A DNA stretch of 64,000 nucleotides from Scenedesmus sp. PABB004 (lineage: Eukaryota). Position 1 is the stretch's first letter. Each line of letters starts with the position of its first letter. Location of the stretch: positions 124,001-188,000 of the forward strand of contig JABVCE010000012.1 in assembly GCA_014905635.1 (NCBI GenBank), in the 5' to 3' direction. The translations under genes were made by a program, and so were the position numbers. The notes beneath the pieces are model-generated. The model ran no database searches, was not told the DNA's origin, and saw nothing but the letters and a program-made list of their open reading frames with translations. Positions 29 through 59,338 of the stretch are shown here, piece after piece.

Positions 29-1043
29 CTACTCATCATCTGAGTCCCAGTCAGCGCCATCGTCCGCCGCCGCGGGCTGCTCCTGGATCCACGCGACCAC
101 GGCCTCGTGGCCCTCGCGTGTCGCCCCGCGCTCGCACATTGTGCGCCACCACGGGCAGCCGTTGGTGCGCAGCCAGCACAGCGCCTCGAGCTGCCCGTTC
201 CAAGCCGCCAGGTAGCACGTGTGATCGTCCCACGGCGCGGGCTCGGCCTGGGCGCGCGCCCAGCGCAGCATCTCCACGTCGCCGCGCCGCGCAGCAAAGC
301 GGCACACCCAGTCGCCCCAAGGCAGCGGCGGCGCCTGCGCGCGCGCCCAGCGCAGCACCGCCAGCTGCCCGCCCTCGGCTGCTCCCTCGCACACGTCCCG
401 CAGGTCCAGCCCCTGGTCGCGCGCCCACTCCGGCACGGCAAGCTGGGCATGGCGCGCTGCTTTAAGGCCCACGCCCGGGTCCATGGCGCAGCCGGCGCCG
501 CGCAGCCAGGCCAGCCCCGCCACGTCGCCGCACGCCGCACGCGCCCCGGCCAGCTGTTGCTGCTGAACCTGCTGCTCCCACCCGTCACCCTGCACCGACC
601 GCCAGGCATCCTGCACCGCCGCCAGCGGCAGCTCGGGGCAGCGCAGCGAGACACGCCTGGCGCCGCGGAAGCGCTCGCGCGCCGCCTTGCAGACCAGCTT
701 GGCGGTCCACGCCTGCAGGGACGGCGGCAGGAAGCTCAGGACGTGGAGCACGAGGGGCTCGGGCAGGTCTGGCTGCGGGCTGAGGGCGGCGCGGTGGGGC
801 GATGGCGGGCGCGCGCGTGCAGAGGTCGGCGGTGAGGCGGCGCACGGCGCCTGCTGCGCCTGGCTGTGGCTGGGTGCTCAGTGCCCGCATAGCCAGGCAG
901 CCCCACACAGGGGGGCACCAGCAGCAGCCGCGCGCCCACCTCGCCGCCGCCTCTGCACTGCCGGGCGCCTCGCCCGCCGCAGCTGCCGCCCGCGCGCGCG
1001 TGGTCGGTCCGGCGCGCCGCTTGCCCGCCGGCGCAGCAGACAT
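29..1043 (-). CDS. F-box + ankyrin-repeat protein, cassette copy 1 (2 exons)
   Basis: Exon 1 MSAAPAGKRRAGPTTRAR...AAR, donor AG|GTGGGC near 940. Exon 2 has the F-box-like DLPEPLVLHVLSFLPPSLQAWTAKLVCKAARERF, then GQLAVLRWAR / GDVEMLRWAR / GQLEALCWLRTNGCPW ankyrin-type repeats. Confidence 0.8.
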
Positions 1044-1635
1044 GGCGGGTGCTGGGGCCCTGCGGGCCAGCAGGGAGCAGCAGGCGGCGCCGGCAGCGGG
1101 CGTGAGCGCTCGGGCGGCGTGAGCGCAGCAGCAGCAGCAGAGCGCGGCGCCCGCCTCGGCGCCCAGGCGCGGCGGCGCGGCGGCGGGCCTGCCAGCGGCG
1201 CTCGAGGCGCGCAGGACCGGCAGTCCATGCCACACGCCCGCCCGCCGCGCACCCCCGCAGCCCCCGCCGCCCGCAGCGGGTGCCGTGCAGCGCGGCCAGC
1301 CGCTGCCTGCTCACCGCCTGCCCGCGCGCGCGGCTCGCCTGGCGCTGCACTGGACGGGTCAGCCCGGCCGTCAGGCGCCCGGCGCGCGTCGCCCCGCCTG
1401 GCCAGGGGCGCGCCGCGGGCGCGGGCGGGCGCTGGGCGGCGGCGGCGCGTGTGCGTGCGGGGCTGTGGGCCGCGGCCGGCGCTCGTGCGTGTGTGTGTGG
1501 CAGAGAGGCGCTGAGGGCGGCGGCTGTGTTGGGCGGCGGGCCGGCGCGCGCGGGGCCCTCCTCGGCGGCGGCGCGGGCAGCCGGCCGGGCGGCGCCTGCG
1601 GCCTGGGCCCTGCACCGCCGGCGGCCCGGCCGGGC
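1044..1635 (-). repeat. Conserved non-coding leader of cassette copy 1
   Basis: Shares blocks such as CCCCTGGCCAGGCGGGGCGACGCGCG..GGGCGCCTGACGGCCGGG and CAACACAGCCGCCGCCCTCAGCGCCTC with the other leaders. Confidence 0.85.
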
Positions 1636-1710
1636 GCGCCGCGCGGTGCAGCGCGTGCGGTGGATGCGTGTTGCAGCACCCCGCCGCGGCCCCCCCTCTG
1701 CTAGCTCGCC

Positions 1711-3301
1711 TCACACGCCGGCGCCACCGGCCGCCGCGGCCGCCGCCGCGGCCGCGGCCGCGGCCGCTCGCCGCCGCGCGTCGCGCCCGCGCTCGCTGTC
1801 CGTCTTGGCGCACGCCTCGTCGCGCTCGCCCGCGAGGCTGCACGCCGGCACGAAGCAGGGCTGGCCGTAGACGGGGTCGGCCTCGATCGGCGGCGGCGCC
1901 TGGCCAAAGATCATCTCGCAGGACAGGTCCTCAAAGTTGGGGTTCATCGTCAGCGGCATGCCAAAGTCGTTTGTGAAAAAGCTCTGCGTCGGCACCTGCG
2001 GCCCCAGGCGGCGGCGGGCGCGGGCGTCAGGCGCGGCGACCGGCAGCGGGAGAGCGGTGGCGGGCGGGGAGGAGGACGGGGCGTCGGGCGCGGGCGGCGC
2101 GGGCGGCGGGCGGCGGGCGGGCACCTAAACCGCCGCACCTTGCACATGTTGGTGCAGAGGCCCACGCAGCCGCTCGCCTCGAGGTAGCGGCACTTTTTGA
2201 TGTGCACGACGCTGCGCTGCTCGCGGACCACGCCCGGCGCCACCTCGACGTCCGCGCTGCGCAGCTCGCACTCGCCGACGAGCCACGAAAACCCGCTCGC
2301 CGCGACGGCCGCGTTGACCTCGGCCGCCCACTGCGTCGGCCGGAACAGGAACCTGCGGGGCGAGAGGGGAGGACGGGGCCGCGCGGGCCGCCGAGGCGCG
2401 GGTCGGCGCGCGAGCGCGCGGCCCGCTGCCGCCGTGTGCCGCCGGCGCCGCCGCAGCCGCGAGCGCCGCGCGGCTCACTTGAACGCGGCGGGCAGCCCCG
2501 GCGGCATCAGCGACAGCAGCACGCGCCGCACGAGCGCGCGCTGCTCGAGCGTGGTGCGGCCGCGCAGAATCTCCCGGCTGACGCGCACAAAGTCTTCGTA
2601 GCTGCTCACCCCGCCCGGCGCCACGCCTGCGCGGCGGCGGCGGCGGCGGCGGCGGCGGAGGGGGCGTCGCTCAACCTCGCGCGCGCGCGGCGCGGCTGCC
2701 GCGCGCGCTTCCTGCGCCGCGGCGCGCCCGCGACCGCGCCCACGCCCGCGCCGCGCCCACGCCCGCGCCGCGCCCACGCCCGCGCCCGCGCCGCGCCCGC
2801 GCCGCCGTGTGCCGCCGCGCGCCATGCGTCGCGCCGCGCACCCGGGCCGAGCTGGTCCGCGATCTTCCGCGTGAAGAGCGTGATGAACAGCCGGTCCAGC
2901 GGGCCGTCAGAGTAGGCCGTGCGCTCGGCAAACGGGTCCTGCGCGGCCCGGCGGTGGCGCGGCGTGTGCTGAGACGCTCGGCGCTGCCGCGGGCGCGCGC
3001 GCGGCGCCCCGGCCCCGGCGCGGCGCGGGAGGGCGGCAGTCCGCCCGGGCCGCCCGGGCCGACCAGGGGAGGGGCGGCGCGGCGCGCGGCGGCGCGCGCA
3101 TGGGCGGCGGCGCCGCACCTTGGTCGCCGCTGCTGCGGGCGCCGGCGCCGGCGCGGCCTGTAGCTCCTGCGGCTGCGCGGCCGCCTGCCAGCGCTGCACA
3201 CGCTGCCGGCGAGGGCGAGGGGCGGGGCCAATTGGCACGCCGCGCGGCGGCGCGACTGCGCCGCGTGTGGTGGCCGGCGGCCGCAGCGCGAGCGGCGGCA
3301 T
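1711..3301 (-). CDS. Beta-carotene isomerase D27-like (DUF4033) protein, 5 exons, transit-peptide-like N-terminus
   Basis: Exons encode DPFAERTAYSDGPLDRLFITLF, SYEDFVRVSREILRG, WLVGECE...VHIKKCRYLEASGCVGLCTNMCK, VPTQSFFTNDFGMPLTMNPNFEDLSCEMIFGQAPPP. This is the D27-family Cys pattern. Confidence 0.88.
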
Positions 3302-11350: not shown

Positions 11351-12233
11351 TCACTCGGGCTGCGCCCGGATCCACGCGGCCACAGCTGTGTGGCCACACT
11401 CAGCCGCCACGCGCTCGCACTCGCCACGCTCCCACGGGCAGCCGTTGGCGCGCAGCCAGCGCAGCGCCTCCAGCTGCCCGCGCTCAGCAGCCCTGAAGCA
11501 CGCCCACAGATCCCACGGCGCGGGCTCGTCCTGGGCGCGCGCCCAGCGCAGCACCGCCAGCTGTCCGCCGTGGGCTGCTGTTGCGCAAACGCCCCCCAGG
11601 GCCTGCATCGCGATGCGCGCCCGGTACATCGCGGCGAGCTGGCCGGCGCGTGTTGCTCCCCAGCTCACGCTCCAGTCCCGGTGGCCCCAGTCCATGTTGA
11701 GGATGTCGTAACCGCACACTGCGCGCAGCCAGGTCAGCCCCGCCACGTCGCCGCACGCCGCGCGTGCCCTGGCCAGCCGCCCCTGCTGCCACCGATCACC
11801 CTGCGCCGCCCGCCAGGCCTCCTGCACCGCCGCCAGCGGCAGCTCGGGGCAGCGCAGCGAGACGACCGTGGCGCCGCGGAAGCGCTCGCGCGCCGCCTTG
11901 CACACCAGCTTGGCGGTCCACGCCTGCAGGGACGGCGGCAGGAAGCTCAGGACGTGGAGCACGAGGGTCTCGGGCAGGCCTGTCCACGGGCTGCGGGCGG
12001 CGCGGCGGGGCGAGAGGGGGTGAGCAGGGGAGGGGCGGGGGTGGGGGGGGGGGGAGGCGGTGAGGCGGCGCGCAGCGCCTGCTGGAGCTGCCTCTCGTTG
12101 TTGCGCGCCCGCCAGCCAATCAGCAGGCGCACCTCGCCTCCTCCTCGCCGGGCCCTTCCTCGCCTGCTGGCGCCGCCGGTGCGGGCGCGAGCGACAGACC
12201 GGCAAGCGAGAGTTCTGCCGGCGGCGATGACAT
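11351..12233 (-). CDS. F-box + ankyrin protein, copy 2 (type-B exon 1, one repeat fewer, replaced middle segment)
   Basis: Exon 1 MSSPPAELSLAGLSLAPAPAAPAGEEGPGEEEAR. Exon 2 PWTGLPETLVLHVLSFLPP...GQLEALRWLRANGCPW. Confidence 0.8.
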
Positions 12234-12850
12234 GGCGGGATGCTGGGGCCTGCGGGCCAGCAGGGAGCAGCAGGCGGCGCCGGCAGCGGGCGCGAGCGCG
12301 CGGCGGCGTGAGCGCAGCAACAGCAGCGCCCGCCCCGCCCGTGGCGCGGCGGCGGGGCGGTGTGCCTGCCAGCGACGCCCGGGACGCGCAGACCCGGCAG
12401 CACACGCCACACGCCCGCCACCCGCGCACCGCCGGCGCCCCCGCCGCCCGCAGCGAGCCCCGCGCAGCGCGGCCCGCCGCCGCTGCCTGCTCACCGCCCG
12501 CCAGCGCGGCTCGCCTGGCGCTGGTCTGGGCGGGCCGGCCCGGCCGTCAGGCGCCCGACGCGCGTCGCCCCGCCTGACCAGGGGCGCGCCGCGGGCGGGG
12601 CGGGCGCTGGGCGGCGGCGGCGCGCGTGCGTGCGGGAGCTGCAGGCCGCGGCCGGCGCTCGTGCGTGCGCGTGCAGCAGGGAGGCGCTGAGGGCGGCGGC
12701 TGTGTTGGGCGGCGGGGCGGCGCGCGGGGGGGGGCTCCTCGGCGGCGGCGCGGGCAGCCGGCCGGGCGGTGCCTGCGCCCTGGGCCCTGCACCGCCGCGC
12801 GCCTGCCGGGCGTCGCGGCGCGGCCGTCGTGTGGTCAGCCGGTTGCCAGC
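12234..12850 (-). repeat. Cassette leader, copy 2
   Basis: Same conserved blocks; bounded by the GCTGGCAACCGGCTGACC motif at ~12833-12850. Confidence 0.85.
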
Positions 12851-13042: not shown

Positions 13043-14108
13043 TCACCACACCTGCTCGTCCTCGTCCTCCTCCTCGTCCTCGTACGGCAACCACCAGCCA
13101 CACATGAGCAGCGCCTCCTGATACTCCTCATCGTTGCTGTCGTCCGGCGCCGCGGGCTGCGCCCGGATCCACGCGACCACGGCCTCGCGGCCGCCGCGCA
13201 CCGCCTGGCGCTCGCACACGGCGCGCTCCCACGGGCAGCCGCTGGCGCGCAGCCAGCGCAGCGCCTCCAGGTGCCCTTGCTCAGCCGCCGCCCGGCACGC
13301 CCTCCCGTCCCACGGCGCGGGCTCGGGCTGGGCGCGCGCCCAGCGCAGCATCTCCAGGTCGCCGCGCGCCGCAGCCCGGAAGCACACGTGAGTGCCCCAG
13401 GGCAGCGGCGGCGTCCGCAAGCGCGCCCAGCGCAGCACCGCCAGCTGCCCGCCCAGGGCTGCTCCCTCGCACACCTCCCCCAGGTACAGCCCCTGGTCGC
13501 GCGCCCACTCCAGCACAGCGAGCTGGCCGGCGTGCGCTGCCCGGCCCACAATGTTGCCCATGCCGCAGCCGGCGCCACGCAGCCAGGCCAGGCCCGCTAC
13601 GTCGCCGCACGCCGCGCGCCCCCCTGCCAGCCGCCAGTCCTGCATGGAACCACACTGCACCGCCCGCCAGGCCTCCTGCACCGCCGCCAGCGGCAGCTCG
13701 GGGCAGCGCAGCGAGACGACCGTGGCGCCGCGGAAGCGCTCGCGCGCCGCCTTGCACACCAGCTTGGCGGTCCACGCCTGCAGTGCCGGCGGCAGGAAGC
13801 TCAGGGCGTGGAGCACGAGGGGCTCGGGCAGGTCTGTCCACGGGCTGCGAGCGGCGCGGCGGGCGAGCAGACAAGGGGGCGGCAGTGAGGCCGCGCGCGG
13901 CGCCTGCTGCGCCTGGCTGTGGCTCAGTGCTCGGCGCCCGCCTGGCCAGGCAGCCCAAGACAGGGGGGCACCAGCAGCAGCAGCGCACCCACCTCGGCGC
14001 CGCCTCTGCGCCGCAAGGCGCCTCGCCTGAGGCGGCCGCTGCTGCCGCAGCCGCCCGCGCGCGCGTGGTCGGCCCGGCGCGCCGCGTGCCCGCCGGCGCA
14101 GCAGACAT
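13043..14108 (-). CDS. F-box + ankyrin protein, copy 3
   Basis: Exon 1 MSAAPAGTRRAGPTTRAR. Exon 2 PWTDLPEPLVLHALSFLPPALQAW... ending in an acidic tail EDEEEDEDEQVW. Confidence 0.8.
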
Positions 14109-14785
14109 GGCGCCGCCTGGGGGCCTGCGGGCCAGCAGGGAGCAGCAGGCAGGACGCCGGCAGCGGGGGCGAGCGTGCGCGGACGGCGTGAGCGCAGCGG
14201 CAGCAGCGGCGCGCGGCGCCCGCCCCCGCCCCGGCGCGGTGGCGCGGCGGCGGGCCTGCCAGCGGCGCCCGGGACGCGCAGACCCGGCAGCCCACGCCAC
14301 ACGCCCGCACGCCGCGCACCGCCGCGGCCCCCGCCGCCCGCAGCGGGCGCCGCGCAGCGCGGCCCGCCGCTGCTGCCCTTCCCGCCTGCCCGCCCGCGCG
14401 GCTCGCCTGGCGCTGCGCTGGGCGGGTCGGCCCGGCCGTCAGGCGCCCGACGCGCGTCGCCCCGCCTGGCCAGGGGCGCGCCGCGGGCGGGTGCGGGCGC
14501 TGCAGCGGCGGCGGCGCGTGTGCGTGCGGGAGCTGTGGGCCGCGGCCGGCGCTTAGTGTCCGTGTGTGGCAGGGAGGCGCTGAGGGCGGCGGCTGTGGGC
14601 GGCGGGGCGGCGCGCGGGGGGCCTCCTCGTCGCGGCGCGGGCAGCCGGCTGGGCGGCGCCTGCGCCCCGGGCCCTGTGCCGCTCTCCTCGCGCTGCCGCT
14701 GCCGGGCGCGCGCAGCGTGGCACGGCGCAGAGGCCGCCGCCAGTGCCCGGTGGCGGCAAAGGCGCGGTCAGCCGGTTGGAAGCGT
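14109..14785 (-). repeat. Cassette leader, copy 3
   Basis: Conserved blocks; degenerate boundary motif at ~14764-14783. Confidence 0.85.
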
Positions 14786-14874: not shown

Positions 14875-17224
14875 CTAGGCGCCGCCGCGCGACACCGCGG
14901 CGCGCAGGGCCGCCAGGTTTGCCTCCGCGGCGCGCAGCGCGGCGTCCTGGTGGGGCTGCAGGCCCTGGCCGCCAAAGCTCGACACGTCCTCCCAGTAGGG
15001 GTCGACCACCTGCGCGCGCAGCAGCAGCCGGCGGCGCGCGGCGCTCGCACGCGCCGCCGCGCGCGCCGTCGCAGCCGTCCTGCAAGCGCGCGGCCGCCGC
15101 GCCTTGCTGCGCAGGCCCGCCAGCTCCTCAATGACGGCGAGGCCGCAGAAAGGGACGTAGAGCTCGCTGTAGCCGCCCTCGTGCACCGCGACGACCCGCC
15201 CCGCGCACGACGGCGACGCGTCGGCGTGCGCGCGCAGCACAGAGGCAAAGTAGCTGCGGCGGCGCGGCGCGGCGGCGCGGCGGCGCGGCGCAGGCGGGGC
15301 GGCGCAGGCGGGGCGGTCGGGGGCCCGCCCTCGCACGCTTGCGCGCGAGACAGAGAGAGACAGAGAGAGAGACAGGCGGCCACACGCAGTTTGGAGGCCC
15401 CGCGGCGCGCGCGCGCAGCCGGCGCGCCGCCGTGCGCCGCCGGGCCTCCCGGGCGCACCGGAAGTCCTCGCTGCCGAGCATCATGTGGCCGAGCGGGTCG
15501 AGGTAGCTCGCGTCATAGCCTGGCGAGGCACGCAGCGGCGGCGGCGCGGGGGTGAGGGCTAACAGCCAGCAGCGCTGCTGCCATGTGCCACAAGCAGCAG
15601 CGGCCCTGGGTGCGCGCAGGGCTGGCGCGGCGCGCACCCGCAGACACCAGGATGAGCTGGGGCGCAAACGCGTCGAGCGCGGGCGCGACGATCCGTTCAA
15701 ACGCGGCGCGGTACGCCCCGCTCCCGCTGCCCGGCGGCAGCGGCACGTTGAGCGTCGTGCCCGCGCCCGCGCCCGCGCCGGTCTCGGACATGGCGCCTGG
15801 CGGCGGGGCGCCGCGGCGGTCAGCGGCGGTCAGCCGTGCACAGCGAGCACAGCGCGCTCAGCACGCGCAACTGCGCGCAGCGCACCCGAGCCGATGGGAT
15901 AGTTGCTGTCCTGGTGGAGCGACACAAACAGCACGCGCGGGTCCTCCCAAAACGCCTCCTGCGCGGCGCGGCGGCGCGGCCGGCGGACGCGCGCGACTCG
16001 GGCGGCCGCCGCCGCGGCGGCAGGGCCGGCAGGCCCCTGGCCTTGGCCGCACGGCGGCCGCGGGCGGCGGCGCGCGCCGCGCCTGCGTGCCGTTGCCGTG
16101 GTGGACGTCGTAATCAACGATCGCCACGCGCTCCAGGCCGTGCGCGGACAGCGCGTGCGCTGCGGCGACGGCCACATTGTTGAAGATGCAGTACCCGCCG
16201 CCGTCACGTGGCGTGGCGTGGTGCCCCGGCGGCCTGCCCCGCGGCGGCAGCGGACGGCGCGGCAGGTGGTGGTTGGTGGTTGGTGGTTGGTGGTGGCCAC
16301 CAACGGTGGCGGCGGCCGCCGCGCGGGCGGGGCCGGCGTGCGCCCGCTCGCCGCGCCCGCGCGCGCAGAGGGGAGGGCAGGGAGGCGCGGGGGCGGGGGC
16401 GGGGCGCGCCGGCGCGCCTGCAGAGGGCGTACGCGTTGCGCACGGCGCCGCCCAGCACCGCCTCGGTCGCCGCGATCGCGCCGCCCGCGGCGAGCGCGGC
16501 GAGGGCGTAGCCGCCGGGCATGAACGCAGACTCGTCGCCCACGCGGTGCACGCCCGCGCTGCCGTCGGCGCTCAGCGCGGCCACGCGCTCCACGTACGCG
16601 AGCGTGTGCACCCTGGCACGCCGGCGCGCAGCGCGGCATCGGCGCGGAGCGCGGCGCGGAGCGCTCGGCTCGGCCGCCGCCGCCGCACCGCGTGAGCTCC
16701 TCAACGCTCGCCTCGCGCGGCTGCAGCACGGCCAGCTGCTCCAGCAGCCCGCTGACGGTCACCAGGTTGTGCAGGCGGCGCTTGGTCTCCGCGTGCTCGG
16801 GGTACTGCCCCCGCGGCGGCGGCGTGCGGCGGTGAGCGCGGCGCGCGCGGCGGGCGACGGCGCGGCGGCAGGGCGCCCTCTCCGCGCGCGGCGCTCCAGC
16901 GGCGCCCGCCCGTGCGCCCCTGCCCCGCACCTGCATGGGCTGCACGTACTCCCGCAGGCTGCCCCAGGGCCCGGGGCAGTGCCAGAAGAACAGCTCGCTC
17001 CACAGGTAGCCCGTGCGCAGCGGCGCGCCACCGGCGCCGGCGCCGTCCCCGGCCGCACGCGCGGCGGCGCCGGCAACGGCGGCGACGCGCGGCGCCGCGC
17101 CGTGCCGCCGCGCTGGCGGCGGCGGCGGCGGCCGCCGCGCGGGGCGCGCGCACCGCCGCGCCGGCGCGCCGAGCAGCGCCGCGCCGCCCGCGCGCACTCC
17201 GTCGAGCCGCACGGGCGCTAGCAT
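14875..17224 (-). CDS. Class II histone-deacetylase-like amidohydrolase (bacterial HDAH/PA3774 type), paralog 1, transit-peptide-like N-terminus
   Basis: [92 protein letters not shown]. Confidence 0.92.
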
Positions 17225-17871
17225 GGCGCAGATCTGGGCGCTGTGCTCGGGGCAAGCACCCCGGACACACCACGCTGCTGCGCTCGCCGGCGGCGGCCCC
17301 TGGGCGGCGCAGCGAGCGCGAGCAGCGGGACGCGTTGCTGCTCCGGCGCCGCGCCGCCGCACAGGGCGGCCTGCTCCGCGCCGCTCCACCGGCGTGCGTG
17401 CGGGCGAGGATGCTGCCTCCACGGGTCGCGAAGCGGGCGGGCGGACGGCGCGTGCGGGCCGCGGGCGCGCGCGGCAGCGAGCGGCGGCGGTCGCGTGGCG
17501 TTGCGGGTGGAGGTGGAGCTGCGGCGCGAGGGCGGCCTGGATCGGGTGATCGGGGCGCCACGGGAGCGGGGATTGGGGCCTGCAGGCGGACAGTCAACGC
17601 CAGAACCGCCGTGGTTGACCGCCCGGCGCGGACGCGGGCGTCGTCGCGCGGTCAGCCGCGTTGCCACCGCGCGCGCGGCCGTCCGCCGCGAGCGTCAACC
17701 TCCCACACCGCCACCGCCACAGCACACGCTCCGCGCAGCTCGGCCCGCTGGTGCGCCCTAGCACACGCGCACAGCCAGGCAGGCGCGGGCAACCCCAGAG
17801 CATGGCAAGGCGCGCAGCCGACCGCTGCAGTTGACTGCAGTCAAGCGCCATGCTCCTCCTCAACTCCCGCG

Positions 17872-18841: not shown

Positions 18842-19460
18842 GGCGGGTGCTGGGGGCCTGCGGGCCAGCAGGGAGCAGCAGGCGGCGCCGGCAGCGGGCG
18901 TGAGCGCTCGGGCGGCGTGAGCGCAGCAGCAGCAGCAGCGCGCGGCGCCCGCCTCGGCGCCCCGGCGCGGCGACGCGACGGCGGGCCTGCCAGCGGCGCC
19001 CGGGGCGCGCAGGGCCAGCGACCCACGCCACACGCCCGCCACCCGCGCACCGCCGCGGCCCCCGCCGCCCGCAGCGGGCGCGGCGCAGCGCGGCCCGCCC
19101 GCCGCTGCCTGCTCACCGCCCGCCCGCGCTGCTGGGCTCGCCTGGCGCTGCACTGGGCGGGTCGGCCCGGCTGTCAGGCGCCCGACGCGCGTCGCCCCGC
19201 CTGGCCAGGCGCGCGCCGCGGGCGGGGGCGGGCGCTGGGCGGCGGCGGCGCGTGTGCGTGCGGGAGCTGTGGGCAGCGGCCGGCGCGTGTGTGTGCGTGT
19301 GTGGCACGGAGGCGCTGAGGGCGGCGGCTGTGGGTGGCGGGGCGGCGCGCGCGGGCGCCTCCTCGGCCGGCCGGGCGGCGCCTGCGACCTGCGCCCTGCA
19401 CCGCTGCGCGTCCGCCCGTGCGCGCTGCGACCGTTGTGGTCAGCCGCGTTGCCAGCGCGC
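18842..19460 (-). repeat. Cassette leader, copy 4
   Basis: Conserved blocks; boundary motif at ~19438-19457. Confidence 0.85.
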
Positions 19461-32032: not shown

Positions 32033-32037
<5 letters not shown>

Positions 32038-50039: not shown

Positions 50040-50722
50040 GCGCTGGCAACCGGCTGACCGCGCGGCACCCTTTCGCGGGCCGTGCGCACCCGATGCAGCC
50101 GCCCTGTGCTGGCAGCGGCACTCTCTGCGCGCCGCGGTGCGCCACGCCCGCCCGGCGGCGGCGGCGCAGGGCCCAGGGCGCAGGCGCCGCCCAGCCGGCT
50201 GCCCGCGCTGGCGCCGAGGAGGGCGCGCCCCGCCCTGCCGCCCACAGCCGCCGCCCTCAGCTTCCTCTGCCACACACGCACAAGCGCCGCCTCAGCGCTC
50301 GCGCACGCGCCGCGCCACTCAGCGTTTGAACTGCGGCGCCCTTCCCCGCCCGCGGCGCGCCCCTGGCCAGGCGGGGCGACGCGCGTCGGGCGCCTGACGG
50401 CCGGGGCGACCCGCCCAGTGCAGCGCCAGGCGAGCCGCGCGCGCTGGCAGGCGGAGAGCAGGCAGCGGCGGGCGGCCCGCGCTGCGCGGCGCCCGCTGCG
50501 GGCGGCGGGGTCTGCGGTGGCGCTCGGGCGGCGGGCACGTGGCGTGGACCGCCGGGCCTGCGCGCCCCGGGCGTCGCTGGCAGGCCGCCGCCGCGCCGCC
50601 GCGCCGGGGGCGGGGGCGGGCGCTACGCGCTGCTGCCGCTGCGCTCACGCCGCCCGCGCGCTCGCCCCCGCTGCCGGCGCCGCCTGCTGCTCCCTGCTGG
50701 CACGCAGGCCCCAGGCGGCGCC
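50040..50722 (+). repeat. Cassette leader, copy 8
   Basis: Starts with GCTGGCAACCGGCTGACCGCGCG at ~50042. Confidence 0.85.
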
Positions 50723-51780
50723 ATGTCTGCTGCGCCGGCGGGCAAGCCGCGCGCCGGGCCGACCACGCGCGCGCGGGCGGCTCCGGCGGCGGCGGCGGGC
50801 GAGGCGCCCGGCGGCAACGAGGCAGCGCCAAGGTGGGCGCGCTGCCGCTGCTGCCCCTTCCCCCTGACTGGTGCTGCTGGCCAGGCGGGCGCTGCGCAGC
50901 GAGCCTCAGCCGGCTGCAGCAGGCGCCGCGCGCCGCCTCACCGATGCCCCTGCGCGCGCGCCTCACCGCCGCCCCGCGCCCGCCCGCCCCGCCCTGCGCC
51001 GCCCGCAGCCCGTGGACAGACCTGCCCGAGCCCCTCGTGCTCCACGTCCTGAGCTTCCTGCCGCCGGCCGTGCAGGCGTGGCGTGCCGAGCTGGTCTGCA
51101 AGGCGGCGCACGAGCGCTTCCGCGGCGCCAGGCGTGTCTCGCTGCGCTGCCCCGAGCTGCCGCTGGCGGCGGTGCAGGAGGCCTGGCGAGCGGTGCAGGG
51201 TGACGGGTGGAAGCAGCAGGATAAGAGGCAGCAGCTGGCCAGCGCGCGCGCGGCGTGCGGCGACGTGGCGGGGCTGGCCTGGCTGCGCGCCGCCGGCTGC
51301 AGCATGGTCAGCATGGTGGGCTCGGCAGCGCGCGCAGGCCAGCTCGCCGTGCTGGAGTGGGCGTGCAGCGAGGGGCTGGACCTGGGGGGCGTGTGCATGG
51401 CAGCAACCGACGGCGGGCAGCTGGCGGTGCTGCGCTGGGCGCGCGCGCAGGCGCCGCCGCTGCCCTGGGGCGACTACGTGTGCACCATCGCTGCGCTGCG
51501 CTGCAACCTGGAGGTGCTGCGCTGGGCGCGTGCCCAGGCCGAGCCCGCGCCCTGGAGCGAGGAGACGTGCGTAGTGGCGGCTGGGCGCGGGCAGCTGGAC
51601 GCGCTGCGCTGGCTGCGCGCCAACGGCTGCCCCTGGCTGCGCGTCGGCTGCGAGCGCGCGGCAGCACGCGAGGGCCACGCGGCCGTGGCCGCGTGGGTCC
51701 GGGCGCAGCCCGCGGCGGCGGACGACGGCGGTGTTGAGGATGATGACTCTGATCAGGAGGAGTATGTGGACTACTACTAG
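50723..51780 (+). CDS. F-box + ankyrin protein, copy 8
   Basis: Exon 1 MSAAPAGKPRAGPTTRAR; intron ~50832-51008; exon 2 ends EDDDSDQEEYVDYY*. Confidence 0.82.
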
Positions 51781-51974: not shown

Positions 51975-52638
51975 GTGCTGGCAACCGCCCGACCGCGCGC
52001 TCTCCCGCGCCGCCGGGCGATGACGGCGGCAGCCTCTGCGCCGCGCCGCGCCGCGCCCCGCCTGGCCGAGGGCGGCGGTGCAAGGGCCAGGGCGCAGGCG
52101 CCGCCTGGCCGGCTGCCCGCGCCGCCGCGAAGGAAGGCCCCCCGCGTGCGCCGCCCCGCCGCCCAACACAGCCGCCGCCCTCAGCGTCTCCCTGCCACAC
52201 ACGCACACACACGAGCGCGGCCTACAGCTCCCGCACGCGCCGCTGCAGCCCAGCGCCCGCCCCCGCCCGCGGCGCGCCCCTGGCCAAGCGGGACGACGCG
52301 CGTCGGGCGCCTGACGGCCGGGCTGACCCGCCCAGCGCAGCGCCAGGCGAGCCGGGCGCGCGGGCAGGCGGTGAGCAGGCAGCGGCGGCGGGCCGCGCTG
52401 CGCGGCGCCCGCTGCGGGCGGCGGGGGCTGCGGCGGTGCGCGGCGGGCGGGCTTGTCGCATGGGCGGCCGGGCCTGCGCGCCCCTGGCGCCGCTGGCAGG
52501 CCCGCCGCCACGCCGCTGCGCCGGAGCGGGGGCGGGCGCGCCGCGCTGCTGCTGCTGCTGCGCCCACGCCGCCCGCGCGCCGCCTGCCAACGCTGCCTGC
52601 TGCTCCCTGCTGGCTCGCAGGCCCACACAATCGACGCC
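51975..52638 (+). repeat. Cassette leader, copy 9
   Basis: Starts with degenerate motif GCTGGCAACCGCCCGACCGCGCG. Confidence 0.85.
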
Positions 52639-53631
52639 ATGTCGTCGTCGCCGGCAGAGCTCTCGCTCGCCGGGCTGTCGCTCGGCCCCGCAGCGGCGGC
52701 GCCAGCAGGCGGCGAAGGGCCGAGCGAGGAGGCGGCGAGGTGCGTCTGCTGCTGGCCAGGCGCCTGCTACTTCCCGGGCGGGCCCCTGCGCGTTCTCCGA
52801 CGACAGCAGCGGGCGCCGCGAGAGCCGGTCAGGGCGGCCTGACCTGACCGCCCCGCGCGCCGCCGCCGCTGCCCCTCCCCGCTCCGCAGCGAGGCAGCCC
52901 TGCTGCAGTTGCCCGAGCCGCTCGTGCTCCACGTCCTGAGCCTCTGGCCTCCTTCACTGCAGGCGTGGTGCGCCAGGCTGGTCTGCAAGGCGGCGCGCGA
53001 GCGCTTCCGCAGGGCCATGGTCGTCTCGGCGGCCTGCCCTGAGCTGCCGCTGGCGGCGGTGCAGGAGGCGTGGCGGGCGGTGCGGGGCCACGAGCGGCAG
53101 CAGTGGCGGCTGGCCGAGGCGCGCGCGGCGTGCGGCGACGTGGCGGGCCTGGCCTGGCTGCGCGGCGCCGGCTGCGACACGCGCTACGTGTGCTGGGCAG
53201 CTGCGCGCGCAGGCCAGATCGCGGTGCTGGAGTGGGCGCGCAGAGAGGGCCTGCGCCTGCAGGGCGTGTGCGCAAGAGCGGCCAAGGGCGGGCAGCTGGC
53301 GGCGCTGCGCTGGGCGCGCGCGCAGGTGCCGCCGGCACCCTGGAACAACTGGGTCTGCTACGAAGCTGCGTCGCGTGGCGACCTGGAGATGCTGTGCTGG
53401 GTACGTGGCCAGGCCGCCCCTGCGCCGTGGAACGAAGACACCTGCTGGGCGGCGGCCGCCAACGGGCAGCTTGACGCGCTGCGCTGGCTGCGCGCCAGCG
53501 GCTGCCCGTGGCTGCGCAGCGAGTGCGAGCGCGTGGCGGCCGGGCGCGGCCACGCTGCCGTGGCCGCGTGGATCCAGGAGCAGCCAAGAGGCATTGTCCT
53601 GGCACAGAACTGCCTCGAGACTGAAGAGTGA
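52639..53631 (+). CDS. F-box + ankyrin protein, copy 9 (type-B exon 1)
   Basis: Exon 1 MSSSPAELSLAGLSLGPAAAAPAGGEGPSEEAAR; exon 2 QLPEPLVLHVLSLWPPSLQAWCARLVCK...SGCPW. Confidence 0.8.
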
Positions 53632-53659
53632 CTGAAGCGAGCGGTGTCCCGCCCGGCCG

Positions 53660-54170
53660 CGGCGGCAGGCCAGGGCGGCGGTGCAGGGCCCAGGGCGCAG
53701 GCGCCGCCCGGCCGGCTGCCCGCGCCGCCGCGAAGGAAGGCCCCCGCGCGCGCCGCCCCGCCGCCCACTGCCGCCGCCCTCAGCGCCTCCCTGCCGCACA
53801 CGCACACACACGAGCGCCGGCCGCGGCCCACAGCTCCCGCACGCACGCGCGCCGCCGCCGCCCAGCGCCCGCCCCCGCCCGCGGCGCGCCCCTGGCCAGG
53901 CGGGGCGACGCGCGTCGGGCGCCTGACGGCCGGGCCGACCCGCCCAGCGCAGCGCCAGGCGAGCCGCGCGCGCGGGCAGGCGGGGAGGGGCAGCAGCGGC
54001 GGGCGGGCCGCGCTGCGCGGCGCCCGCTGCGGGCGGCGGGGGCGCCGGCGGTGCGCGGCGGGCGGGCTTGTCGCGTGTGCTGCCGGGCCTGCGCGCCCCG
54101 GGCGCCGCCGGCAGGACCGCCGCCGCGCCAGGGCGGGGGCGGCGCACGCTGCTGCTGCCGCTGCCGTCGT
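53660..54170 (+). repeat. Orphan cassette leader (copy 10) with no F-box/ankyrin gene, directly upstream of the BRE-like gene
   Basis: All main leader blocks present; similarity ends ~50 bp before the ATG at 54219. Confidence 0.85.
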
Positions 54171-54218
54171 CGCCGCTCCACGCCGCGTTCGGCCGCGCGC
54201 CGCCCGCAGAGCACGGCC

Positions 54219-55935
54219 ATGGAGCGGCTCACCCTGTTCCAGCGGCCCTGGTGCAACGAGCAGCTGGAGTGGCAGCTGATCGGCAGCCCGTCCGACCGGG
54301 GCAAGGCGCCGGACGTCGTGTTCTGCGACCCGACCTTCAGCCCGCTCGCGCCCGGCGGCGCCGGCGCCGGCGGCGCGCGCCTCGCGGAGCTGCTGGACGC
54401 GTGGACCGGCCCCGAGTGCCTCCCGGCGCTGCTGGACGAGCTGCTGCGCCTCTATGCTGAGCACCAGTGCGCCGCCGCTGCCGCCGCCGACGCAGCGCCG
54501 CCGCCGCAGCAGCAGCTGCCGTGGCAGTGGCGTGCGCGCTCCTTGCCTCCGCTTGCGTCGCCACCATTGCCGCGCGCCCTGCTGTGGTTCCGCCGGCGCT
54601 TGCAGGAAGGCCAAGGTCGCGGCGCTCGGGGACGAGCGCATGCTCTTTGAGCTGGCCATGCTCGACGACCTCGGCTGCACCGAGGTCGCCCAGGCCGGTG
54701 CGCGGGGGGCCGCCGCAGGGGCCCCCCTCCCCCTCGCCCGCCCTCCGCGCGCGCAGCGCGCTCTCCGCACGCGCATCGCGCCCTCCGCACGCGCCCCACG
54801 ACACACCCGCGCGCGCCGCCCTGACCGCCGTCCTAACCGCTCTTAACCCCCCCCCCCCCGCCCCGCCGCAGGCTCCTTTGACGGCTCCTTCCAGCAGGCC
54901 TGCTTCTCCATCCCGCTCGCGGCCGACCTCGGCCCCGCGGCGCGCCTGCGCGAGTTTGCGGCGGCCGCGGCGGCGGGGCCGAGGCGCCGGGCGCCGCGCG
55001 CGCGCGGTGGCGGCGGCGGCGGAGCAGCAGCAGCAGCAGGAGGAGGAGGGGGGCTTTGTGCTGCACGTGGCCTTCCGCGTCGGCCCCGGCGCGCGCAGCC
55101 ACGCCGCGCCCGACCTGTCGCTCGCGAGCCCGCCCTGGGCGGCCGCGCACCTGCCGCCGCTCGCGCTGCCCGCGTGGGACCCGCAGAGCTCGCTCGTGGA
55201 GTTTGTCCCCGCCGCGGCGGAGCGGCTGGGCAAGCACCTGTCCGACCACTGCCCTCCCGCGGCGCTGCGCTTCGAGCTGCTCGCCGCGCTCGGGGGCGCG
55301 CTCGGCGCGCCGCTCGAGACCGTCGCGCGCGCGCCGCCGCCGCGGCCCGGCGGCGCGAGCAGCGCGGGTGCGGCGGCGGCGCGCGGCGCGCCTGCGGCGC
55401 GCGTGCGCGCGCGCGCCCGTCGCCGGCGCCGCGAGCCACCCCGTGCCGCCACCTGCCGCGCGCGCAGGCGCCAGCGCCGGCGGCGCGCGCGGCGGGGGCG
55501 GCGGCCGCGCCGCGAGCACCGCGCTGTTTCAGGTCGCGTGCGAGGCGCAGCCGCTGCTGCTGCACGTGGAGCTGTCGCCGGGCTTCCCCGCCGACGCGCC
55601 GGTGCTGGTGCTGCAGAGCGCGCGGTGCGGCCCGGCGGGGCGTTTCCCGCGGGCCCCGCCGCGCGGCGCGCCGGCGGTGGCGAGCCGAGCCGAACCGCCG
55701 CCCCGCCCGCCCGCCGCCCCGCGCCGCGCCGTCCCGCGCCGCGCCGCGTGCGCGCAGGCGGCAGGGCCCCGACAGCACCACGACGCTGGCGGGCGTCCCC
55801 TGGAGCCCGCGCTGGCCCGTGGATGAGATGGTGGCCCGGCTGTTCAACTTCATCAAACAGCAGGCCCCCGCGTTTGCGCGCGAGGCGGGCGGCGGCGCGG
55901 GCGCGGGCGCGAGCGGCGGCGGCGCGCCGCCCTAG
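54219..55935 (+). CDS. BRE: BRE/BRCC45/BABAM2-like subunit of BRISC and BRCA1-A complexes
   Basis: ERLTLFQRPWC.EQLEWQLI...APDVVF, LLDELLRLYAEHQ, LPAWD..SSLVEFVP, LLHVELSPGFP..APVLVLQS, PWSPRWPVDEMVARLFNFI. True start uncertain; frame slips near 54990 and 55400. Confidence 0.8.
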
Positions 55936-55939: not shown

Positions 55940-56597
55940 GCCTGCAACGGCTGGGCGCCCGGAGTCGTAGCACCAGCGCCGCCGCGCCGCACTCGCCGCA
56001 CCGCTGATCGCCCGCCGGGCGGCAGTGCAGGGCGCAGGGCGCAGGCGCCGCCCGGCCGGCTGCCCGCGCCGCCGCCGAGGAGGGCCCCCTGCGCGCGCCG
56101 CCCCGCCGCGCAACACAGCCGCCGCTCTCAGCGCCTCCCTGCCACACGCACGCACACAAGCGCCGGCCGCGGCCCGCAGCTGCCACACGCACGCGCCGCC
56201 GCCGCCCAGCGCCCGCCCCCGCCCGCCGCCGCCCCTGGCCAGGCGGGGAGACGCGCGTCGGGCGCTTGACGGCCGGGGTTGAACCGCCCAGCGCAGCGCC
56301 AGGCGAGCCGGGTGCGCGGGCAGGCGGGGAGGGGCAGCAGCGGCGGGCGGGCCGCGCTGCGCGGCGCCCGCTGCGGGCGACGGGGGCTGCGGCGGAGCGC
56401 GGCGGGCGGACGTGTGGCGTGGGCCGTCGGGCCTGCGCGCCCCGGGCGCCGCTGTCAGGCCCGCCGCCGCGCCGTCGCGCCGGGGCGGGGGCGGGCGCCG
56501 CGCGCTGCTGCTGCTGCGCTCACGCCGCCCGCGCGCTCGCGCCCGCCGCCGGCGCCGCCTGCTGCTCCCTGCTGGCCGGCAGGCCCCAGCAGGTGCC
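55940..56597 (+). repeat. Cassette leader, copy 11
   Basis: Clear similarity from ~56010; possible degenerate boundary motif at ~55941. Confidence 0.8.
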
Positions 56598-57472
56598 ATG
56601 TCCTCCGCGCCGGCGGGCAAGCGGCGCGCCGGGCCGACCACGCGCGCGCGGGCAGCTGCGGCAGCTTCGGCGGACGAGGCGCCCGGCGGCGACGAGGCGG
56701 CGCCGAGGTGGGCGCGCTGCTGCTGTCAATCCCTGGCTGGTGCCGCTGGCCAGGCGGGTGACGAGCACCGAGCCTCAGCCAGCTGCAGCAGGCGCCGCGC
56801 GCCGCCTCACCGCCGCCCCGCGCCCTGCCCCGCCACGCCGTCGCCCGCAGCCCGCTGCCCGAGCTGCCCCAGCCCCTCGTGCTCCACGTCCTGAGCTTCC
56901 TGCCGCCGGCGCTGCATGCGTGGACCGCCAAGCTGGTCTGCAAGGCGGCGCACGAGCGCTTCCGCGGCGCCACGGTCGTCTCGCTGCGCTGCCCCGAGCT
57001 GCCGCTGGCGGCGGTGCAGGAGGCGTGGCGGGCGGTGCAGGGTGGTGGGGAGCGGCAGCAGATTCGGCTGGCCGGGGCGCGAGCGGCGTGCGGCGATGTG
57101 GCGGGTCTGGCCTGGCTGCGTGGCGCCGGCTGCGACATGGGCGGCGTGGCCTGGGCAGCAGCGGAGCACGGCCAGCTCGCCGTGCTGGAGTGGGCACGCG
57201 ACCAGGGGCTGGACCTGGAGGCGGTGTGCGTTGCAGCAGCCAAGGGCGGGCAGCTGGCGGTGCTGCGCTGGGCGCGCGCCCAGGCCGAGCCGCCGCCGTG
57301 GGGCGACCTGCCGTGCTTCATCGCGGCCATCCGTGGGCAGCTGGACGCACTGCGCTGGCTGCGCGCCAACGGCTGCACGTGGTCGCGCGACCTGTGCGAG
57401 AGCGTGGCGGCAGACGAGGCCGTGGTCGCGTGGATCCGGGCGCAGCCCGCGGCGGCGGACGACGGGCCCTGA
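56598..57472 (+). CDS. F-box + ankyrin protein, copy 11 (one repeat fewer; acidic tail out of frame to 57554)
   Basis: Exon 1 MSSAPAGKRRAGPTTRAR; exon 2 PLPELPQPLVLHVLSFLPP...NGCTW. Confidence 0.8.
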
Positions 57473-57729
57473 CTGGGACACGGATGAGGAGGAGGGCTGG
57501 AGCTCGGACGAGGGGGAGGACGAGGACGGGGAGGAGGGGGAGCACGCCGCGTGAGTGCGGCCGGCCGCGCGCCGCGCGCCGCCCCAGGCTGTGCCCGGCC
57601 GCGGCTGGCGGCCAACCGGTTGCGCGTGTGCGTGTGTGGGGTGGCGCCGCGCTGCCTGAGCCTGAGCCCGTGGCGGCAGCGGACACACGGCTCAGCGCGC
57701 GCGGCGGGGCGAGTTGACGCTGGCGCCAC

Positions 57730-58424
57730 GGGCTAGCAACCGGCTGAGCGCGCGGCGGACCCTTTCGCGGGCCGTGCGCACCCAACGCGGCTGTCGTGTG
57801 CTGGCAGCGGCGCCCTCTCTGCGCCGCCGCACCGCGCCCGCCCGGCGGCGGCGGCGCAGGGCCCAGGGCGCAGGCGCCGCCCGGCCGGCTGCCCGCGCCG
57901 CCGCCGCCGAAGAGGCCCCCCGCGCGCGCCGCCCCGCCGCCCACAGCCGCCACCCTCAGCGCTCCTGCCGCACACGCACACGAGCGCCGGCCGCGCCCCT
58001 CACAGCGCCCACACGCACACCGCGCCGCCGCCGCCCCGCGCCCGCCCCCGCCCGCGACGCGCCCCTGGCCAGGCGGGGCGCGGACGTGCGGGCGCCTGGT
58101 GACTAGGCCGTGCCGCCGAGCGCAGCGCCAGGCGAGCCGGGCGCGCGGGCAGGCGGGGAGGGCAGCGGCGGCGGGCGGGCCGCGCTGCGCGGCGCCCGCC
58201 GCGGGCTGCGGGGGCACCGGCGGTGCGCGGCGGGCGGGCATGTCGCGTGGGCGGCCGGGCCTGCGCGCCCCGGGCGTCGCTGGCAGGCCCGCCGCCGCGC
58301 CGCCGCGCCGAGGCGGGGGCGGGCGCCGCGCGCTGCTGCTGCCGCGCTCACGCCGCGCGCGCGCTCGCCCGTTGCCGGCGCCGCCTGCTGCTCCCTGCTG
58401 GCCCGCAGACTCTCAGACGGCGCC
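57730..58424 (+). repeat. Cassette leader, copy 12
   Basis: Starts with GCTAGCAACCGGCTGAGCGCGCG; the following CCTTTCGCGGGCCGTGCGCACCC is shared with copy 8. Confidence 0.85.
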
Positions 58425-59338
58425 ATGTCTGCTGCGTCGACGGGCAAGCGGCGCGCCGGGCCGACCACGCGCGCGCGGGCGGCTGCGGAAGCGGCAGCCG
58501 CCGCAGGCGAGGCGCCTGGCGGCGCAGAGGCGGCGGCGAGGTGGGCGCGCTGCTGCTGCTGCTGCTGCCCCCCTGTCTGGGGCTGCCTGGCCAGGCGGGC
58601 GCCCATCACTGAGCCACAGCCAGGCGCAGCAGGCGCCGCGCGCCGCCTCACCGCCGCCCCTGTGCGCCGCCTCACCGCCGCCGCCCTCGCCCCGCCAGCG
58701 CCGCCAGCAGCCCGTGGACAGACCTGCCCGAGCCCCTCGTGCTCCACGCCCTGAGCTTCCTGCCGCCGGCCCTGCAGGCGTGGCGTGCCAAGCTGGTCTG
58801 CAAGGCGGCGCGCGAGCGCTTCCAGGGCGCCACGGTCGTCTCGCTGCGTTGCCCCGAGCTGCCGCTGGCGGCGGTGCAGGAGGCGTGGCGGGCGGTGCAG
58901 GGTGATGGTGAGGTGACGAGGGCGCGCGCGGCGTGCGGCGACGTGTCGGGCCTGGCCTGGCTGCGCGGCGCCGGCTGCAGCATGGACAGTGGCGTGGGCT
59001 GGGAAGCAGCGAAGCACGGCCAGCTCGCCGTGCTGGAGTGGGCGCGAGGCGCGGGGCTGAACCTGCAGCTCGTGTGCGCTGGAGCAGCCCTGGGCGGGCA
59101 GATGGCGGTGCTGCGCTGGGCGCGCGCCCAGGACGAGCCCGCGCCGTGGGACCACCTGTCGTGCTTTGCGGCGGCTTGGAAAGGGCACCTGGAGGCGCTG
59201 TGCTGGCTGCGCGCCAACGGCTGCCCGTGGCGGCGTGGCGTGTGCGAGCGCGGCGCGGCACGCGAGGGCCACGAGGCCGTGGTCGCGTGGATCCGGGCGC
59301 AGCCTGCGGCGGCAGACGACCAGCCGGGCTGGGGATGA
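58425..59338 (+). CDS. F-box + ankyrin protein, copy 12 (one repeat fewer)
   Basis: Exon 1 MSAASTGKRRAGPTTRAR; exon 2 PWTDLPEPLVLHALSFLPP...GHLEALCWLRANGCPW. Confidence 0.8.

Follow-up and report, generated by a model that had tools for sequence, protein, structure and literature searches.

Clustered F-box-like/ankyrin genes in Scenedesmus sp. PABB004: a family probably grown by local duplication

Introduction

How does one gene, together with its own upstream region, come to be repeated again and again among neighbors to which it is mostly unrelated? The question is raised by a 64,000-nucleotide stretch of the genome of Scenedesmus sp. PABB004 (contig JABVCE010000012.1 of assembly GCA_014905635.1, positions 124,001 to 188,000, forward strand), hereafter the window. 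It contains twelve copies, one of them partial, of a unit or cassette in which a leader precedes a two-exon gene for a protein with an N-terminal F-box-like motif and ankyrin repeats. An earlier note on the same DNA, made from the sequence alone, had offered two accounts of these copies: a non-autonomous, gene-carrying mobile element, or a locally amplifying repertoire of substrate receptors for SCF (SKP1, cullin, F-box) ubiquitin ligases. The present analysis favors, with a probability of roughly 0.7, a lineage-specific, clustered family of SCF-receptor-like genes, grown by tandem and segmental duplication with concerted evolution.

The genome as a whole gives this question its setting. The portion of the genome report used here (PMC12571836) describes an assembly of 39.8 Mb with 78.5% guanine plus cytosine (GC), 7,092 genes and 1.31% repeats, the smallest in its family and the one with the most gene-family contractions. 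Literature searches and the text used of this one paper on the strain gave no description of the present gene family in this alga; in that text (PMC12571836) the terms "ankyrin", "F-box" and "tandem dupl" occur zero times.

Results and Discussion

A unit copied whole, with leader and intron

A BLASTN search with positions 1-1700 against the window, and a self-comparison of the window, identified 12 related units (1.5-1.7 kb); nothing else of that size is repeated. They are numbered c01 to c12 from left to right (Table 1). As the earlier note had it, eleven are gene copies and one, c10, is a leader alone; the limits it gave for the set coincide with stop codons, that of c01 at 29 and that of c12 at 59338. 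A multiple alignment together with gene models gave one plan for the eleven genes, the complete unit measuring 1.6-2.0 kb: about 600-620 nt of leader come first, then a conserved ATG, and the intron (142-176 nt) separates exon 1 (97-116 nt) from exon 2 (620-800 nt). The splice donor is AG/GTGGG in nine copies and AG/GTGCG in c02 and c09, where the slash marks the exon boundary, and the acceptor is CAG/C in ten of the eleven. The intron falls in phase 2, as previously described, in every copy except c07, in which a 1-nt deletion leaves an exon 1 of 97 nt. The shared 3' trailer that had been reported for four copies extends about 190-230 nt past the stop codon in c03, c04, c05 and c07 (4 of 11).

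Exon 1 occurs in two types, about 60-66% identical to each other, one in c02 and c09 (type B) and the other in the remaining nine copies. Both types stand behind ordinary leaders, and c09 pairs its type B exon with an unrelated intron; the units are thus mosaics of modules. Repeat number in the encoded proteins varies by in-frame insertion or deletion, with one repeat more in c05 and one fewer in c02, c11 and c12. The intron is found in 11 of 11 copies and the 600 nt upstream were copied as well, neither of which is a feature of retrocopies. The proposal that copying took place at the DNA level and not by retroposition is borne out by these retained parts and by the indel patterns described next, which confirm the intron.

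Reading frame is kept in the exons

Distinct internal gap runs were counted on nucleotide alignments made without codon information. Lengths divisible by three account for all 18 runs in exon 2 and eight of nine in exon 1, the one exception being the c07 frameshift, as against four of 19 runs in the intron and 14 of 79 in the leader. A sliding scan for GC periodicity by codon position picked out exon 2 in the copies along with exons in neighboring genes, and none of the 12 leaders. The in-frame gap runs and the periodicity together show that both exons keep their reading frame and that intron and leader are noncoding. The comparative indel patterns lend support to the predicted splice sites. 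In 12 of 13 NCBI gene models from the same alga, exon 1 and the F-box are 28-35 residues apart, which is the spliced spacing; the thirteenth model keeps the intron. We infer that splicing takes place in vivo and that the leader has promoter activity.

The earlier estimate, made by eye, that the leader is about as conserved as the coding scaffold proved accurate. Mean identity over the 55 pairs of copies is 0.853 in the leader (0.777-0.909), 0.810 in exon 1, 0.731 in the intron and 0.821 in exon 2 (0.763-0.860). Conservation along the leader is flat, at 0.81-0.94 in 30-nt blocks, falling to 0.66 at the upstream edge and to 0.72 in the last block, which spans the ATG. By the Nei-Gojobori method, the proportion of synonymous differences (pS) in exon 2 is 0.183 and that of nonsynonymous differences (pN) is 0.180, a ratio of about 1. 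The leader is as conserved as exon 2 because replacement sites in exon 2 diverge as fast as silent sites. The equality is therefore a property of the coding part and no sign of special constraint on the leader. As a caution of method, equal conservation of coding and noncoding regions in DNA of extreme GC content indicates neither function nor mobility. Nor does the length of an open reading frame (ORF) carry much information at such GC content: the window has 425 stop-free frames of at least 100 codons, counted over all six frames, 162 of them of at least 250 codons.

Ankyrin repeats behind a probable F-box

The predicted protein opens with an F-box-like motif at its N terminus, and between five and seven ankyrin-type repeats come after it. 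Of the two domains, the ankyrin one is certain. Pfam model Ank_4 scores above its gathering cut-off of 22.7 bits in nine of 11 copies, the two below it being c02 (20.5 bits) and c12 (21.2 bits). A profile built from the family and its relatives matched designed and natural ankyrin proteins among PDB sequences with E-values down to 1.6e-30. The AlphaFold2 model of c04 exon 2 has a mean predicted local distance difference test score (pLDDT) of 89.3, with paired helices over residues 52-228 and N-terminal helices (7-15 and 19-38) of block-mean pLDDT 64-83. A Foldseek search with this model returned 38 PDB matches at E <= 0.001, and those ranked highest are ankyrin proteins, including FEM1 E3-ligase receptors.

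The evidence for the F-box is of a different grade. The F-box-like Pfam model matches residues 1-32 of exon 2 in ten of 11 copies, with no match in c09, over about 30 of the 47 profile positions; the test by profile that the earlier note had proposed thus gave hits in nearly all copies, every one of them under the Pfam gathering threshold (best 22.8 versus 24.3 bits). When a profile of the N-terminal 66 residues was searched against PDB, the seven best of the ten matches at E <= 10 were F-box proteins aligned at the start of their F-box, the best E-value being just 0.0014. The Pfam list for a fused NCBI model that covers four copies, P0121, includes PF00646 and PF12937. We class these as ankyrin-repeat proteins whose F-box is probable but unproven. 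Their putative role would be that of SCF substrate receptors, with SKP1 bound through the F-box and substrates recognized by the repeats, and the claim of a locally amplifying SCF-receptor repertoire fits the evidence, its F-box part as a probability.

Variation concentrated at periodic positions

Variation in exon 2 is periodic, with invariant scaffold columns and hypervariable register positions. In the N-terminal 64 codons, pS is 0.108 and pN 0.086, and the F-box part has a pN/pS of 0.79. Within five ankyrin repeats, register positions 5, 6, 7, 9, 10, 13 and 14, a set picked after the alignment had been viewed, give a pN/pS of 1.50 (bootstrap 1.24-1.85), and the remaining 100 ankyrin columns give 0.66. 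Work on designed ankyrin proteins uses positions 2, 3, 5, 13 and 14 of the register; for that set pN/pS is just 1.15 (0.82-1.49). Diversifying selection at periodic ankyrin positions is suggested, not proven.

The same figures bear on a quite improbable alternative, that the copies are decaying, functionless duplicates whose frames stay open just from the rarity of stop codons in DNA of 80% GC. The exon 2 ratio of about 1.0 and the hundreds of long stop-free frames are what it predicts; c07 is visibly damaged, and the F-box match lies below threshold. Decay does not account for the contrast in indels, all in frame in exon 2 and nearly all in exon 1 as against 14 of 79 in the leader, nor for periodic variation around invariant scaffold columns, nor for splice dinucleotides and intron phase kept in ten of 11 copies.

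Head-to-tail arrays, shared flanks and a conversion tract

The copies form four head-to-tail arrays (c03->c02, c05->c04, c08->c09->c10 and c11->c12) and three singles. Those left of about 34 kb are all on the minus strand and those to the right all on the plus strand. Most pairwise alignments of leaders begin 560-620 nt before the ATG, several reach 70-120 nt further, the leader alignments of c02 and c04 run on into the preceding trailer, and c07 homology starts late, between about -440 and -510 relative to its ATG. The 3' ends are ragged: homology ends near the stop codon, past the trailer or, in c09, within the C-terminal tail about 20 nt before the next leader. Partial units occur, namely c10, a leader truncated at its 3' end, and c07, whose leader is truncated at its 5' end. 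Pieces similar to the distal trailer stand upstream of the leaders of c03, c06, c08, c09 and c12 (about 45 nt in the case of c06), as expected if duplication began inside the preceding unit.

Duplication also took in neighboring genes. The block 11223-17334 is collinear with 17751-23688, at 72% identity over about 6.1 kb where the background is about 58%, and each block holds two cassettes and a histone-deacetylase segment. The two histone-deacetylase-domain genes (15516-17050 and 21371-23913, minus strand) each lie directly upstream of a cassette pair. They have in common a 670-nt segment at 94% identity. Between the two genes identity is 98-100% over about 500 nt, including a 275-nt identical tract, and near background elsewhere, which suggests recent gene conversion between old paralogues. 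A second case is an inverted repeat of 830 nt, by which part of the gene upstream of c07 recurs upstream of c06. The deacetylase pair and this repeat correct the earlier description of the interleaved genes as single-copy: most of them are unduplicated, but not all.

The block alignment is a mosaic of stretches at 98-100% and at 75-85% identity. The non-adjacent copies c02 and c05 share an identical run of 233 nt (P ~1e-16.6 given column-wise conservation), while over the whole of exon 2 the two are 85% identical. Other long identical runs, 97 nt between c03 and c10 and 82 nt between c01 and c04, are not significant when the number of comparisons is allowed for. Identity between copies is at most 91% in the leader, where it ranges from 78%, and at most 86% in exon 2. 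In a quick tree search with 34 copies from inside and outside the window, weak grouping by place was found: c02 to c06 come together with a Shimodaira-Hasegawa-like approximate likelihood ratio (SH-aLRT) support of 88, and the window label changes 6 times on the tree, compared with a mean of 9.5 after shuffling; 5 of 500 shuffles gave a value that low.

A family of at least 39, mostly on one contig

The closest named proteins are those of Scenedesmus sp. PABB004 itself. Two NCBI models map to the window at 93-100% identity. One, P0121, is a protein of 1966 residues named histone deacetylase-like amidohydrolase (23413 to 11354, minus), which fuses the two deacetylase genes with c05, c04, c03 and c02. 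The other, P0128 (HT031_003976; 32871-40583, plus), joins upstream genes to c07 and ends in it. A further 22 PABB004 proteins match the window at no more than 80% identity and therefore lie outside it. A profile search found 28 cassette-like segments in these 22 proteins, counted after merging of the search rows, with six models holding two each. Of these segments, 25 are on the same 1,235,393-bp contig as P0121 and P0128, and the locus tags of cassette-bearing models span HT031_003954 to 004038. The other three are one each on contigs of 433,685, 795,618 and 1,005,304 bases, that on the 1,005,304-base contig being a more distant relative. By this count the family has at least 39 members, mostly in one chromosomal region that reaches well beyond the window; the figure is a lower bound, in that the recovered NCBI models cover just five of the 11 copies in the window. 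A family of this size stands out in a streamlined genome, as a candidate recognition repertoire built on a protein type that the alga has in common with giant viruses.

More than 12 named NCBI models elsewhere on the contig hold cassette-derived segments, among them aspartyl aminopeptidase, BGL1A, fbiC, FZR2, CM1, BMS1 and thioredoxin-like 4. The models fuse cassettes with their neighbors because stop codons are rare here. These public gene models need correction and would mislead comparative studies.

Duplication weighed against mobility

In the mechanism we favor, the whole transcription unit would have been duplicated as DNA, taking with it an intergenic leader that serves as promoter and 5' untranslated region, exon 1, the intron, exon 2 and at times the trailer. 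The head-to-tail arrays would stem from tandem duplication, presumably by unequal crossing-over; segmental duplication nearby, in direct and in inverted orientation, would have taken along pieces of neighboring genes; and deletions would leave the partial units. Ectopic gene conversion would keep parts of the copies alike. The frame and the repeat scaffold are conserved, with periodic hypervariable positions in each ankyrin repeat, as for a diversifying binding surface, and the proteins would probably act as interchangeable substrate receptors of SCF ubiquitin ligases. Four of the observations above are those looked for in tandem and segmental duplicates: head-to-tail adjacency, partial units, co-duplicated flanks and a conversion tract.

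Several results weigh against this reading. The 5' edge of homology is fairly uniform, which a transposon would explain likewise. Most interleaved genes are unduplicated, so pure segmental duplication needs many later losses. Tandem neighbors are not mutual closest relatives. The 34-copy tree is star-like, with no inner branch well supported, no close pair and a median terminal branch of 0.51; together with the narrow range of identities, this could reflect either a single burst of amplification or an equilibrium between divergence and short-tract conversion. Three of the 28 outside segments are on other contigs. On the functional side, the F-box scores fall short of the gathering threshold, the register positions with the highest pN/pS were chosen with the alignment in view and those of the designed-ankyrin set show much less, and an overall pN/pS near 1 could equally reflect relaxed constraint.

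The star-like tree, the non-nearest tandem neighbors and the unduplicated interleaved genes are why a small probability is kept for a non-autonomous DNA mobile element (a Pack-MULE, a Helitron or an unknown type) that carries the gene, depends on an enzyme encoded elsewhere and prefers to re-insert nearby. The even 5' edge and the narrow spread of pairwise identities suit such an element, as do cassettes that stand between unrelated genes across the whole range of locus tags and appear on three other contigs. Direct tests went the other way. A search of three units for terminal inverted repeats gave just short GC-rich matches of 70-95% complementarity, none of which joins the unit termini. Comparison of the flanks of six arrays gave no consistent target-site duplication: the longest direct match is 6-8 nt in five (null mean 8.0), and the 14-nt match of the sixth is reached by 1.5% of 3000 random window pairs, uncorrected for six tests. 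Unit boundaries are imprecise, and short target-site duplications could escape this comparison.

Helitrons begin with TC, end in CTRR behind a subterminal hairpin, and encode a Rep/helicase in autonomous copies. The units differ at both ends: the 5' start is GTGCAGGG in eight of the 11 leaders in which the motif was found and GCGCAGGG or GCACAGGG in the other three, and the 3' ends differ from one another. Among 285 window ORFs of at least 110 residues outside the cassettes, Pfam searches (E <= 1e-4) found no transposase, reverse transcriptase, recombinase or helicase, in agreement with the earlier statement that no mobilizing enzyme is seen there. The earlier note had named ragged ends and confinement of the copies to this locus as marks of ordinary segmental duplication. 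Ragged 3' ends are present, along with partial units and several classes of 5' extension, and confinement holds in part, for 25 of the 28 outside copies share one contig and three do not. Ragged ends, head-to-tail arrays, co-duplicated pieces of neighboring genes and a genome repeat content of 1.31% (PMC12571836, in the portion used here) all speak against an element, and that half of the earlier proposal now looks unlikely.

A transposase-free route is slightly less probable again. Units or short arrays might be excised from tandem arrays as circular DNA, or copied by template switching during replication, and then re-inserted locally with no dedicated enzyme. The distal trailer pieces ahead of the leaders of c03, c06, c08, c09 and c12 look as if the units had been circularly permuted, and most of the interleaved genes show no duplication. 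Segmental duplication that starts inside the preceding unit would leave such remnants too, however, and no junction diagnostic of a circle was identified within the window.

One portion of the locus invites a broader speculation. Homology in c10 stops about 85 nt short of the position of the ATG in other copies, and a different ORF begins at an ATG at 54219, 15 nt past the end of the c10 leader. Over the following 1.7 kb or so, the sliding scan shows coding-like GC periodicity in five segments on the same strand. This gene matches no Pfam family and has no homologue among longer proteins. From its position, the c10 leader may serve as a captured upstream region for an unrelated orphan gene. 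It is conceivable, at long odds, that the cassette is a portable transcription unit which spreads over several hundred kb of one chromosome with no transposase, for example by circular excision and local re-insertion, and whose leader can be donated to other genes (53651-54219). If true, this would build a fast-diversifying repertoire of ubiquitin-ligase receptors, perhaps as one side of a conflict with giant viruses that bear the same protein type.

Relatives in viruses and comparison with receptor families

The statement that this repeat type occurs in green algae and giant viruses is well founded. Repeats of the GHLExLRW...NGCPW type are abundant in giant-virus contigs: of 198 candidate stretches there, 181 encode relatives, with 30-47% identity. 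Many of these viral relatives lie on contigs of 0.6-2.5 Mb, numerous copies to a contig, and some matches extend as far as the first residues of the query and take in its N-terminal part. Chloropicon, Tetraselmis, diatoms, Tribonema and Balamuthia have relatives as well.

The viral relatives raise the further alternative, a very improbable one, that the locus is what is left of an integrated giant-virus genome. Genomes of this kind have large families of ankyrin and F-box proteins, and a Pandoravirus protein is among the protein matches. The genes between the cassettes are ordinary cellular ones, including those for V-ATPase subunit F, a proteasome AAA ATPase, a D27-like isomerase, a lipase and a kinase. 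Window GC content is 76-81% throughout, uniform (0.76-0.81) over cassettes and host genes alike, and the intron has GT-AG boundaries. Pfam scans of the window ORFs found no virus-indicating family, and relatives of similar identity are found in other algae and protists. The uniform composition, the intron and the interleaved housekeeping genes speak against a recent viral insertion.

Viral ankyrin proteins are nonetheless among the closest parallels in kind. According to the portions used of two papers, F-box-like ankyrin proteins are common in giant viruses and poxviruses (PMC7019647, PMC10583209), and the chlorovirus PBCV-1 proteins A682L and A607R bind Skp1, the Skp1-binding motif of chlorovirus and poxvirus proteins being C-terminal (PMC7019647). 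The giant-virus and poxvirus proteins, A682L and A607R among them, likewise have an SCF-recruiting motif alongside their ankyrin repeats and belong to large families of paralogs. In the present family, by contrast, the motif is N-terminal, and the genes are cellular, intron-bearing and of host base composition.

Cellular F-box proteins matched in the PDB (MAX2/D3, FBXO42, FBXO2 and FBXW7) give the comparison for the N-terminal part. In the alignment the motif LPxxLxLxxLSFL ... VCK falls at the beginning of their F-box, and a repeat domain follows in both; the interaction domain is made of ankyrin repeats here and of leucine-rich repeats, WD40 or Kelch repeats there. FEM1B and FEM1C are among the best structural matches of the model (Foldseek probability 1.00), and the ankyrin solenoid is the substrate-binding module of the FEM1 receptors. 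Unlike the present family, FEM1 proteins recruit CUL2 by another motif, are larger, and are encoded by conserved single genes with no expanded cluster.

At the level of gene organization, the nearest likeness is to plant clusters of F-box genes and of nucleotide-binding leucine-rich-repeat (NLR) genes, which evolve fast and grow by tandem duplication with gene conversion. Those clusters resemble this one in head-to-tail arrays, birth and loss of partial copies, mosaic identity from conversion, hypervariable binding positions on a conserved scaffold, and a changing number of repeats. The copies here differ in standing one or two at a time among unrelated genes in place of one long array, and in belonging to a genome of 78.5% GC and 1.31% repeats, as the portion used of the genome report has it (PMC12571836).

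Features of the window and minor observations

Table 1. Coordinates of the twelve units and associated features within the window.
Feature	Coordinates	Strand	Remarks
Unit c01	29..1660	-	Leader ~1044-1660, exon 1 1043-940, exon 2 779-29 including stop
Unit c02	11351..12830	-	Exon 1 12233-12133 (type B), exon 2 11990-11351; one ankyrin repeat fewer; second in pair c03->c02
Unit c03	13043..14777	-	Exon 1 14108-13993, exon 2 13844-13043; trailer continues into c02 leader
Inverted repeat, left arm	32030..32850		~830 nt, 94% identity, 187-nt identical tract
Unit c04	17633..19429	-	Trailer ~17633-17871, exon 2 18586-17872, exon 1 18841-18732, leader; second in pair c05->c04
Unit c05	19634..21296	-	Exon 2 20435-19634 (extra ankyrin repeat, in-frame insertion), exon 1 20686-20580, leader
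Histone-deacetylase segment, copy 1	15610..16278	-	Repeated at 21901-22567, 94% identity
Histone-deacetylase segment, copy 2	21901..22567	-	Within the same collinear block pair
Unit c06	29984..31622	-	Single; exon 2 30692-29984, exon 1 30973-30867, leader
Inverted repeat, right arm	35787..36615		Overlaps exon of model P0128; 2.9 kb between arms
Unit c07	39117..40837	+	Single, aberrant; exon 1 39627-39723 (1-nt frameshift), exon 2 39883-40586, trailer to ~40837
Unit c08	50042..51780	+	Exon 1 50723-50832, exon 2 51009-51780; first in array c08->c09->c10
Unit c09	51982..53631	+	Exon 1 52639-52739 (type B), diverged intron, exon 2 52890-53631, aberrant C-terminal tail
Unit c10	53651..54204	+	Leader only, by BLASTN and alignment
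Multi-exon gene, no recognized family	54219..55890	+	Directly behind c10 leader
Unit c11	55981..57472	+	Exon 1 56598-56707, exon 2 56851-57472; one ankyrin repeat fewer; first in pair c11->c12
Unit c12	57732..59338	+	Exon 1 58425-58540, exon 2 58711-59338; one ankyrin repeat fewer

Pfam matches among the neighboring ORFs are to a D27-like isomerase, V-ATPase subunit F, two histone deacetylases, a proteasomal AAA ATPase, a class-3 lipase and a protein kinase, with one apolipoprotein match below cut-off. Unit c01 lies just downstream of the D27-like gene, on the same strand. The proteasomal AAA ATPase gene (Rpt-type; 26633-29763, plus) is tail to tail with c06, about 220 nt away; the presence of a proteasome subunit gene inside a cluster of putative ubiquitin-ligase receptors is probably a coincidence. 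The inverted repeat sits where the orientation of the cassettes flips from minus to plus, and no Pfam family was found in its arms. Searches of the window for RNA genes gave 0 matches with Rfam at gathering thresholds and 0 tRNA genes.

Three candidate features were set aside. The segment 52008-52714, considered as a second leader-only piece, turned out to be the 5' portion of c09, a copy with a diverged intron. An intron in the 5' untranslated region, within the leader, had been suggested by an acceptor-like CAG 17-20 nt before the ATG; candidate donors are unconserved, with GGTGAG in five of 12. Two metagenome loci that match a 21-nt F-box motif do so by chance, both having 70% GC and no similarity to the window.

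Short tandem repeats occur at 41797-41871 and 9969-10019, with periods of 6 nt and 2 nt (overlapping exact self-matches), and many GC-rich low-complexity stretches elsewhere cross-match at 75-85%.

Two short motifs recur in or near the leaders. The 13-mer CTGGCCAGGCGGG, which includes the palindrome CTGGCCAG, has 17 sites in the window against 0.01 expected, exclusively within cassettes. The leader has one site, about 350 nt ahead of the ATG, and the intron another in the same orientation, and seven copies have both; in c03 they are at 14461-14473 (leader) and 13937-13949 (intron). We regard it as a candidate regulatory motif. Leaders start 75-190 nt past the stop codon of the preceding gene or cassette (for example 1616-1700, 14680-14870, 21261-21350 and 55930-56024), and a TGCAA or TGGCAA motif is found 60-170 nt ahead of the leader start. 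The polyadenylation signal of green algae is TGTAA, and TGCAA/TGGCAA could be this alga's version of it.

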